Positions 32,323-32,482 of a stretch of DNA of 64,000 nt are shown here, in pieces. The notes beneath the pieces were generated by a model. That model saw only the letters and a list, made by a program, of their open reading frames with translations, made no database searches and was not told the DNA's origin. The first letter of the stretch is position 1, and each line of letters begins with the position of its first letter. Origin of the DNA: Candidatus Saccharimonadota bacterium (lineage in GTDB: Bacteria; Patescibacteriota; Saccharimonadia; Saccharimonadales; Saccharimonadaceae); contig JAILQE010000007.1 of assembly GCA_024699125.1 (NCBI GenBank), forward strand, positions 2,236 through 66,235. The letters are read 5' to 3'. A program made the position numbers and the translations under genes.

Positions 32323-32405
32323 CCCCAAAATCCAAATTTCACTTCGTGAAATTTATTTTTTTGCAAAGCAAAAAAATAAAGCAACGAAGTTGCTTTCGGA
32401 TTTTG
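32323..32405 (-). other. Cloverleaf-like four-way junction trailer starting at the tRNA-Ile CCA
   Basis: An 11-bp outer stem (32323-32333 / 32398-32408, including the CCA) encloses three abutting triloop hairpins at 32334-32354, 32355-32377 and 32378-32396. Confidence 0.7.
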
Positions 32406-32482
32406 TGGTAGGGGCGATAGGACTCGAACCTATGACGCTGCGTGTATAAGACGCATGCTCTAACCAGCTGAGCTACGCCCCC
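32406..32482 (-). tRNA. tRNA-Ile (anticodon TAT)
   Basis: Manual fold: GGGGGCG acceptor, D arm GCTC-AGCTGGTTA-GAGC, anticodon stem-loop TGCGT-CTTATAC-ACGCA, T arm ATAGG-TTCGAGT-CCTAT, ACCA end. Confidence 0.85.

Follow-up and report, generated by a model that had tools for sequence, protein, structure and literature searches.

Several kinds of structured elements have been described behind tRNA and other genes. Intrinsic terminators, including bidirectional ones between convergent units, combine a GC-containing hairpin with a T-run, in the bidirectional case both ways, and with an A-rich tract opposite. The rtT repeats behind tyrT and tyrV of E. coli (RtT RNA, RF00391) are structured trailer units of 178 nt that carry a tRNA-like CCA end and are prone to duplication and unequal crossing-over. 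REP, BIME and REPIN elements and PATEs, which are associated with Y1 transposases (RAYT, IS200/IS605), are extragenic strand-polar palindromes with conserved irregularities located behind genes, and some of them are terminators or RNA stabilisers. tRNA-like minihelices processed by RNase P, such as mascRNA and viral tRNA-like structures, possess an acceptor-like stem, an unpaired A and a 3′ CCA. Mini-hairpins of the d(GCGAAGC) type (C-GNA-G) are single DNA hairpins that were reportedly studied by Hirao and co-workers in vitro and in phage origins. Here we describe an 86-nt element, from here J, that starts at the CCA end of a tRNA-Ile(UAU) gene in a Candidatus Saccharimonadota bacterium, and compare it to these systems. 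The window analysed is a stretch of 64,000 nt (assembly GCA_024699125.1, contig JAILQE010000007.1, positions 2,236 to 66,235 of the forward strand), and coordinates refer to this window.

J is the junction half of a two-part tRNA-trailer cassette, J+MH, that occurs in a narrow set of Saccharibacteria. The second half, the acceptor-mimic hairpin (MH), was absent from an earlier note on this DNA and was revealed as a homologous block of about 59 nt by aligning the trailers of tRNA-Ile(UAU) and tRNA-Met. The structure is conserved family-wide despite a near-total turnover of its sequence, it carries terminator signals on both strands and loops of a defined polarity, and MH is obligatory downstream of it. 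Our preferred, if tentative, explanation is that J may be a two-way intrinsic terminator junction, coupled to the conserved MH, that also folds in sense RNA resulting from read-through; we would put its chances at a little under even. The elements of the cassette at the tRNA-Ile(UAU) locus are the following:

32406 to 32482, minus strand: tRNA-Ile(UAU) gene with its encoded CCA at 32406-32408 (ARAGORN; Rfam tRNA model, 66.5 bits).
32323 to 32408, minus strand: J, a complete CCA-closed four-way junction of 86 nt (sequence, folds and a family of 27 members).
32398 to 32408, minus strand: 5′ arm of the closing stem, CCACAAAATCC, beginning at the tRNA CCA (10 of 11 pairs with 32323-32333).
32378 to 32396, minus strand: hairpin 1, AAAGCAAC-ttc-GTTGCTTT, the putative sense terminator hairpin, then ATTTTTTT (scored as terminator-like on the minus strand).
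32355 to 32377, minus strand: hairpin 2, ATTTTTTTGC-ttt-GCAAAAAAAT, in which the sense T-run (32370-32377) pairs with the template of the antisense T-run (32355-32362) (sequence).
32334 to 32354, minus strand: hairpin 3, AAATTTCAC-gaa-GTGAAATTT; in plus-strand reading it is followed by ATTTTTTT and is the putative antisense terminator (sequence).
32323 to 32333, minus strand: 3′ arm of the closing stem, GGATTTTGGGG (sequence; the same arm precedes the same MH in the relative L075).
32266 to 32324, minus strand: MH, 59 nt (covariance model R1, built from the MH copies, 79.3 bits, E 3e-20; covariation).

On the plus strand, the closing stem joins 32323-32333 (CCCCAAAATCC) to 32398-32408 (GGATTTTGTGG) by 10 of 11 pairs; the sole mismatch places the A of the CCA (A76) opposite a G (A.G on the tRNA-sense strand). 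All three hairpins are perfect, with plus-strand loops of TTC on 9 bp (32334-32354), AAA on 10 bp (32355-32377) and GAA on 8 bp (32378-32396), and nucleotide 32397 is the only unpaired base between the elements of J. In the sense of the tRNA, the trailer reads CCA-CAAAATCC, one G, hairpin 1, hairpin 2, hairpin 3 and GGATTTTGGGG. An outer stem of 10 of 11 bp including the complement of the CCA had been proposed in the earlier note and is borne out by direct reading of the sequence; the three abutting triloop hairpins reported there proved exact in position and perfect in their stems. Compared to dinucleotide shuffles, J reached z = -6.2 when folded as RNA; as DNA it reached z = -8.3 and -7.9 for the two strands, with none of 200 shuffles equalling it.

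Three copies of J+MH exist in this genome, behind tRNA-Met, tRNA-Ile(GAU) and tRNA-Ile(UAU). One of them lies in the same window:

15196 to 15332, plus strand: sister cassette behind tRNA-Met, consisting of J at 15196-15275 and MH at 15274-15332 (sequence, R1 and family).

The likeness in shape of the tRNA-Met and tRNA-Ile(UAU) trailers had been recognized correctly in the earlier note, together with a lack of sequence identity. The latter applies to the junctions; it does not extend downstream, since a homologous MH, about 75% identical, stands directly behind both. Hence, the two trailers are copies of one cassette family and not independent look-alikes.

From a few ruminant-gut Saccharibacteria and metagenome contigs, 27 distinct junctions were gathered. 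They are hosted by nine tRNA species (Met, fMet, Ile-GAU, Ile-UAU, Ala-CGC, Glu-UUC, Val-UAC, Leu-CAA and Pro-UGG) or by a copy of a tRNA end. The family shape consists of a stem of 10-13 bp starting with the CCA, three hairpins with loops of 3-4 nt, and almost no linkers. In hairpin 2, a T-rich 5′ arm and an A-rich 3′ arm are retained; otherwise arms and hairpins are free in their primary sequence, and the arms differ among members while the complementarity stays. Altogether, the 27 junctions contain 912 Watson-Crick pairs, 15 G.U pairs and 3 mismatches. MAFFT seed alignments of J fell out of hairpin register, and therefore each sequence was folded individually instead of using a covariance model. 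The CCA-closed four-way junction was the RNA minimum-energy fold for 25 of the 27 and is, for this reason, taken as the fold of the family, with the tRNA-Ile(UAU) copy being one of the two exceptions.

MH is narrowly distributed. Of 151 genomes sampled from the genus, 6 have an R1 match. Strict sequence patterns matched five Saccharibacteria metagenome-assembled genomes out of ~185,000 species genomes, chiefly of goat and buffalo gut origin, and ~10 metagenome contigs. Besides the source genome, contigs with the cassette include RGIG2324 JAFRAS01, RGIG7212, RGIG7612 and CAMZAW01. A loose pattern (CAAGCGA..TAGAGC) applied to 400 genomes of the family, 21 of them of the genus, gave essentially chance matches outside the source genome and was superseded by the stricter patterns and the covariance model. 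In the 765-kb source genome, R1 returned exactly three MH, behind tRNA-Ile(GAU), elongator tRNA-Met and tRNA-Ile(UAU), each preceded by a J.

The generic AT-rich palindromes that the earlier note had named as an alternative do not explain J. A genome-wide scan for a closing stem enclosing three perfect hairpins returned four loci, against 0, 0 and 0 in three Markov-1 random genomes, while the 12 loose matches were about as many as in random sequence (6-11). Three of the four perfect loci adjoin a tRNA CCA and the fourth, in a 16S rRNA leader, is of the same cassette type. This copy (contig C8 440-510, antisense to the rRNA; locus L174, C8 440-537) is followed by a degenerate MH, AGCGAAGGGCGCG-TTA-GCGACCTACGA, and has a direct repeat of 10 nt, ACGATGAAA(A)T, on either side. 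Evidently, the cassette is not confined to tRNA loci.

The consensus of MH is GG-AARGNCGNC-AAGCGAWA-[8-9 bp hairpin]-TTAGAGC-..CGNCYT-ACCA, with TACCA as the 3′ end family-wide. It folds into an acceptor-like stem of 7-8 bp (8 bp in the tRNA-Ile(UAU) copy) with a purine-purine mismatch at position 4, followed by an AA bulge, two G-C pairs, a tandem G.A and a variable hairpin (8 bp in the tRNA-Ile(UAU) copy), and it ends with an unpaired A plus CCA at the 3′ side. Over 11 copies, 94% of the cells were paired and 9 of 19 pairs had changed on both sides; none of 500 shuffles reached the pairing score and no slid register came close. The retained G.A and purine-purine mismatches are strand-specific, as the other strand would have pyrimidine clashes. 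With its covarying acceptor-like stem and its A-CCA end MH is akin to the tRNA-like minihelices and a candidate for an RNase P minihelix substrate, in which an acceptor stem stacks on a T-stem-loop (about 12 bp) and ends with a 3′ NCCA, but it lacks a T-arm and T-loop, its helix is longer and interrupted by the AA bulge and the tandem G.A, and the accompanying J has no tRNA-like loops. Both tRNAs in the window with a cassette, elongator tRNA-Met (15122-15198) and tRNA-Ile(UAU) (32406-32482), apparently have a G1.U72 wobble atop the acceptor stem (5′ GGTACCG.. / ..CGGTACT-ACCA and 5′ GGGGGCG.. / ..CGCCCCT-ACCA, respectively), and MH ends with the same YTACCA.

Every unit follows an ACCA and ends in ACCA, with a length of ~140 nt. 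Tandem MH copies are present in L073, L075, L099, L106, L110, L126 and L149, while the tRNA-Ile(UAU) copy is a single unit. By having tandem trailer units that end in a tRNA-type CCA, J+MH is akin to the rtT repeats, as a likeness of kind only: sequence and model (RF00391, E up to 5) do not match, the units are ~140 nt versus 178 nt long, the end of MH is the family-wide TACCA and not a copy of the host tRNA end, and to our knowledge rtT has no counterpart of the four-way junction. Rfam at gathering score found only tRNAs in the entire window; when E was relaxed to 5 for 32180-32500, the sole additions were microRNA and snoRNA matches of chance level, with no RtT among them. The literature on Saccharibacteria tRNA trailers and on minihelices downstream of tRNAs contained nothing relevant that we could find.

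Terminator signals occur at fixed places of the junction. At least 6 T within 9 nt follow hairpin 1 in the sense direction in 24 of the 27 junctions, and at least 6 T follow the reverse complement of hairpin 3 in the antisense direction in 25, compared to only 3-4 of 27 for the other two positions (hairpin 3 sense, hairpin 1 antisense). Since the T-runs follow hairpin 1 and the reverse-complemented hairpin 3, the two paired arms of hairpin 2 are the sense T-run and, behind it in every case, the template of the antisense T-run. In the tRNA-Ile(UAU) copy, hairpin 1 (32396-32378, minus strand) followed by ATTTTTTT was called terminator-like by the scan; as in an intrinsic terminator, it is a hairpin with G-C pairs that has a U-tract right behind it, though it is weak. 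A hairpin with a T-tract on both strands between convergent units, as in a bidirectional terminator, is present as well, and J is located just behind a highly expressed gene. J differs from such terminators in that the T-tract and A-tract of its two hairpins pair crosswise, whereas in a normal terminator these tracts extend their own hairpin; moreover, it closes on the tRNA CCA as a linker-free four-way junction, has strand-polar G..A loops and always has MH downstream. The idea that J arose when an A-tract/hairpin/T-tract terminator was duplicated in tandem, its tracts then cross-pairing automatically, was rejected, as the first T-tract and the 5′ arm lack complementarity.

The source genome is 98.8% complete. 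Rho, RNase E/G, RNase Z, SbcD and MutS gave no match in it; it does contain RNase III, RNase Y, ExoVII and the RNA of RNase P, and all 46 tRNA genes encode the CCA. With no Rho found, intrinsic terminators must do all stopping, and with neither RNase E/G nor RNase Z found, the formation of tRNA 3′ ends must do without the usual endonucleases. Much of the standard machinery for RNA processing and termination has been lost in Saccharibacteria and other ultra-small bacteria, which bears on how their tRNAs are finished.

The loops of the hairpins have a strand polarity. Among 74 unique hairpins on the tRNA-sense strand, 40 G..A loops (GAA, GTA, GCA, GNNA) stand against 5 T..C loops, and 33 of the 40 are closed by C-G, with many reading CGAAG, CGTAG or CGCAG. 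For hairpin 3 alone, the count over all 27 junctions is 19 G..A and 0 T..C, compared to 9 and 10 for the other terminator-like hairpins of the genome. Internal G.U pairs (7) and A.C pairs (2) in the stems were too few to decide on a strand. The cassettes of tRNA-Met (plus strand) and tRNA-Ile(UAU) (minus strand) are 17 kb apart without a GC-skew switch between them, and therefore the polarity follows transcription and not replication. A symmetric DNA palindrome or a symmetric two-way terminator would show like loops on both strands, and those of the junctions are unlike. This polarity argues that the entire junction, including the part past the sense terminator, matters as sense RNA, and thus that some read-through occurs. 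J shares the C-G-closed G..A loops (33 of 40) and the minimum with DNA parameters with the C-GNA-G mini-hairpins, from which it differs in that its hairpins are arms of a junction and their polarity runs along transcription.

Turnover of the junctions is fast. In L075 (contig CAMZAW010000015) the flanking genes are ~99% identical to the tRNA-Ile(UAU) locus, the 3′ part of the tRNA is identical and MH is the same except for one substitution, but the three hairpins are entirely different, and an extra MH is present, then the same GGATTTTGGGG arm. This pattern fits tandem ACCA-ended units that gain or lose members via short-repeat recombination and palindrome deletion. The same is seen at tRNA-Met, where the MH of L126 is identical while its junction differs. 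The core of the tRNA-Met junction (15196-15275) is 78-80% identical to the relatives L126 (78%) and L119 when reverse-complemented versus 71% in forward orientation, which suggests that the core of J can flip between its inverted-repeat arms. On a metagenome contig (L133), a junction behind tRNA-Pro shares 80% identity with the tRNA-Ile(UAU) junction itself, and hairpin 3 contains compensatory changes between the two. In other species of the genus, the trailers of orthologous tRNA-Ile(UAU) genes are unrelated, and BLAST of the tRNA plus trailer against 60 relatives matched the tRNA part only. Ordinary phylogenetic covariation at this locus is therefore impossible.

As a two-way terminator, the cassette would work as follows. 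In the sense direction, hairpin 1 and its U-run would halt RNA polymerase ~30 nt past the CCA, and in the antisense direction the complement of hairpin 3 with its U-run would halt polymerases heading for the tRNA. The templates of the two U-runs would pair with each other, yielding hairpin 2, and the A-rich arm beside the CCA would pair with the U-rich arm behind hairpin 3, yielding the closing stem; the linker-free four-way junction would result from these two pairings. In RNA from partial read-through, the junction would close on the CCA and MH would fold as a tRNA-acceptor-like end. The closed junction, a stacked helix of ~20 bp, may present RNase III with a cut site next to the CCA, while in terminated RNA the single-stranded A-rich arm may be cut by RNase Y. 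Such sites would matter where RNase E/G, RNase Z and Rho are not found. Turnover may involve two kinds of events: ACCA-ended units may undergo unequal crossing-over or deletion with one another, and the palindromic core may be exchanged or inverted. J is also a compact natural candidate for the design of two-way terminators.

Several observations weigh against this explanation. With RNA parameters, the tRNA-Ile(UAU) copy has its minimum in a single long, interrupted hairpin (-34.4 kcal/mol), owing to partial complementarity between hairpins 1 and 3, and the four-way junction (-32.4 kcal/mol) is 2 kcal/mol worse; with DNA parameters both strands have their minimum in the four-way junction. A cloverleaf-like fold of this copy, as in the earlier note, is thus matched by the DNA minimum and not by the RNA minimum, and the long hairpin is a local accident of A/T-rich arms. 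Hairpin 1 is weak here (8 bp, 3 G-C pairs, about -6.6 kcal/mol). The loops of hairpin 3 are sense-polar, the wrong way round for an optimised antisense terminator, and such a terminator looks redundant at this locus because a good one already exists at 32218-32251, belonging to the convergent open reading frame (ORF) 31986-32189. The stems are 98-99% Watson-Crick, with far fewer G.U pairs than usual in RNA helices, and C-GNA-G triloops are reportedly exceptionally stable in DNA rather than RNA (Hirao, Yoshizawa). Neither terminator needs the closing stem, the 3′ arm of which lies beyond both release points, and so this defining feature is the least explained part; its closure on the CCA is not accounted for by termination. 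Finally, that the T-runs terminate, that polymerases read through and that processing follows is in each case what we infer.

A rather unlikely alternative is that J+MH is primarily a functional sense RNA, termination being secondary. RNase III would cut the closed junction (~20 bp) near the CCA and RNase P would recognise the MH minihelix, releasing a stable trailer RNA as well as the tRNA 3′ end and thereby replacing the missing RNase E/Z route. The sense polarity of the loops, which includes hairpin 3 past the sense terminator, is consistent with this, and so are the covariation of MH with its conserved non-canonical internal loops, the closing stem that always has 10-13 bp from the CCA onwards, the existence of tandem MH copies and the presence of RNase III and RNase P RNA in a genome in which RNase E/G and RNase Z were not found. 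However, most transcripts should already stop at the U-run that nearly always follows hairpin 1, ahead of the 3′ arm and MH, RNase P measures a 12-bp minihelix, to which MH with its longer stem and without a T-loop corresponds poorly, and as only 6 of 151 genomes carry the cassette and orthologous tRNA-Ile(UAU) trailers are unrelated, J+MH cannot be an essential maturation route.

Two further observations favour this alternative. Genome-wide, an uninterrupted, CCA-inclusive stem of at least 11 bp starts inside the CCA behind 16 of 46 tRNAs, compared to 27 of 3000 random CCA sites, which also speaks for processing. Trailer stems that reach into the CCA thus accompany one third of the tRNA genes and are a property of this genome, with J as their most elaborate form. 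In L101, the cassette is located 7 nt before another tRNA gene, and a reading of the sequence revealed no good promoter there or in MH; the junction has the weakest sense T-run (4 of 9), which counts in favour of the two-way terminator. In L101 (G479:C3, ~497,200-497,500), tRNA-Glu is followed by a hairpin that pairs with ATCACCA, then by a copy of the tRNA 3′ end, J, MH, 7 nt and the next tRNA, and the cassette therefore appears to lie inside a tRNA operon. A location in an rRNA operon, which would exclude termination, was checked for the tRNA-Ala/tRNA-Ile(GAU) copy, and no rRNA was found within 8 kb. If J+MH functions as RNA, it would point to a new route of tRNA 3′-end formation or surveillance and add an uncatalogued family of structured RNA.

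Simple long-hairpin trailers were observed at tRNA-Lys CTT (window ~6100-6152) and, elsewhere, at tRNA-Val(TAC), Gln(CTG) and Arg(GCG). They have the form AAAAAAAGAAG-NCC..loop..GGN-CTTGTTTTTTT and share a conserved G.G mismatch located at one and the same place in the stem, a hint that these, too, are copies of one module.

The idea of processing can be carried further, to a module dedicated to tRNA 3′ ends in bacteria without Rho, RNase E/G and RNase Z. In such a module, which we regard as unlikely, the junction would be an RNase III or double-strand site for cutting read-through precursors, and MH a mimic of the tRNA end that recruits RNase P or the CCA-end machinery and perhaps persists as a small stable RNA. 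If this is true, the many other CCA-pairing trailers of the clade would be variants of one undescribed scheme of maturation or quality control.

The main non-adaptive alternative regards the cassette as a by-product of mutation, and we consider it improbable as well. Terminator DNA would have grown by template switching or quasipalindrome correction and unequal crossing-over, in a host without enzymes that remove palindromes and mismatches, and its shape would have no function; as selection fixes the tRNA side, the far arm would have been converted to the complement of the CCA end. Template switching creates and maintains perfect hairpins with apparent compensatory changes (PMC8794818). The nearly perfect Watson-Crick stems with hardly any intermediates point in this direction, as do the complete replacement of hairpins between strains with 99% identical flanks, the seemingly flipped tRNA-Met core (78-80% flipped versus 71% forward), the varying reach of the pairing into the tRNA end (from CA to 7 nt between tRNAs) and the lack of a match for either SbcD or MutS. 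The genome does contain ExoVII, however, an enzyme that counteracts quasipalindrome mutagenesis in E. coli. Symmetric DNA processes and inversions would erase a loop polarity of 40 to 5, template switching would perfect the asymmetric internal loops and mismatches of MH that are the same across diverged copies, and the architecture is constant in 27 copies regarding arm lengths, three hairpins and absence of linkers. Hence, a mutational by-product fits the perfect stems and their rapid replacement but not the loop polarity or the irregularities of MH. Should it nevertheless be true, the locus would illustrate clearly how palindromes grow in nature against a template that is fixed, here the tRNA, and would be a caution that covariation and perfect stems need not mean function.

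Mobile DNA is a very improbable source, be it a PATE- or REP-like single-strand transposon (IS200/IS605-type Y1, inserting after ACCA) or the att scar of an integrase at the tRNA 3′ end. It would suit units that each follow and end in ACCA and form tandem arrays, hairpins that are strand-polar and stable as DNA, the patchy distribution, the 16S-leader copy with its 10-nt flanking direct repeat and a remnant of an IS200-like transposase in the genome. Yet this remnant of 75 aa is the only Y1 of the genome, and Y1_Tnp occurs in 8 of 151 genomes of the genus and in 0 of the 5 other cassette-bearing ones. The three genomic copies are only 60-80% alike, which indicates no recent burst, and thousands of other ACCA sites in the genome have no copy. 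Unlike REP and PATE elements, J+MH has 3 copies per genome, all at tRNA ends, and no terminal tetranucleotide but ACCA. Mobilisation by a Y1 transposase was therefore rejected on copy number (3) and lack of a co-occurring transposase. The att scar was rejected as well: the repeat comprises only (T)ACCA, the 3′ strand of MH differs from that of tRNA-Ile, the ACCA ends are 140 nt apart, which leaves no room for an island, and the neighbouring ORFs have no integrase match. The remnant (contig C7 80310-80537; L175:1811-2038, minus strand) is located at a contig end and lacks its middle part, so that the N- and C-terminal motifs adjoin.

Hardly conceivable is a true tRNA mimic, a second cloverleaf serving as decoy or substrate for tRNA-binding enzymes: the term cloverleaf-like in the earlier note captured the four-helix topology right at the tRNA end, but every other defining feature excludes it, since there is no D-loop, T-loop or 7-nt anticodon loop (loops are 3-4 nt), the closing stem has 10-13 bp instead of 7 and no NCCA behind it, linkers and a variable region are missing, the hairpin sequences are entirely unconserved, and no match came from ARAGORN or from Rfam, the latter with E as lenient as 5.

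Two further features were annotated next to the cassette:

32493 to 32520, minus strand: putative promoter of tRNA-Ile(UAU), TTATCA, 16 nt, TG-n-TAGAAT (consensus scan; a pattern match only).
32218 to 32251, strand not assigned: separate terminator (A-tract, GC hairpin, T-tract) between MH and the convergent ORF 31986-32189 on the plus strand (sequence; plus-strand terminator-like call; kept in L075).

The plus-strand ORF 32252-32449, which overlaps J, and its neighbours 31986-32189, 32514-32954 and 31166-31861 had no Pfam match, and ORF 32252-32449 was taken as spurious. The ORF at 31986-32189 (plus strand), which converges on tRNA-Ile(UAU), encodes 67 aa, and its DNA is kept beside tRNA-Ile(UAU) in several species of the genus (trailers L002, L010, L011, L013 and L025).

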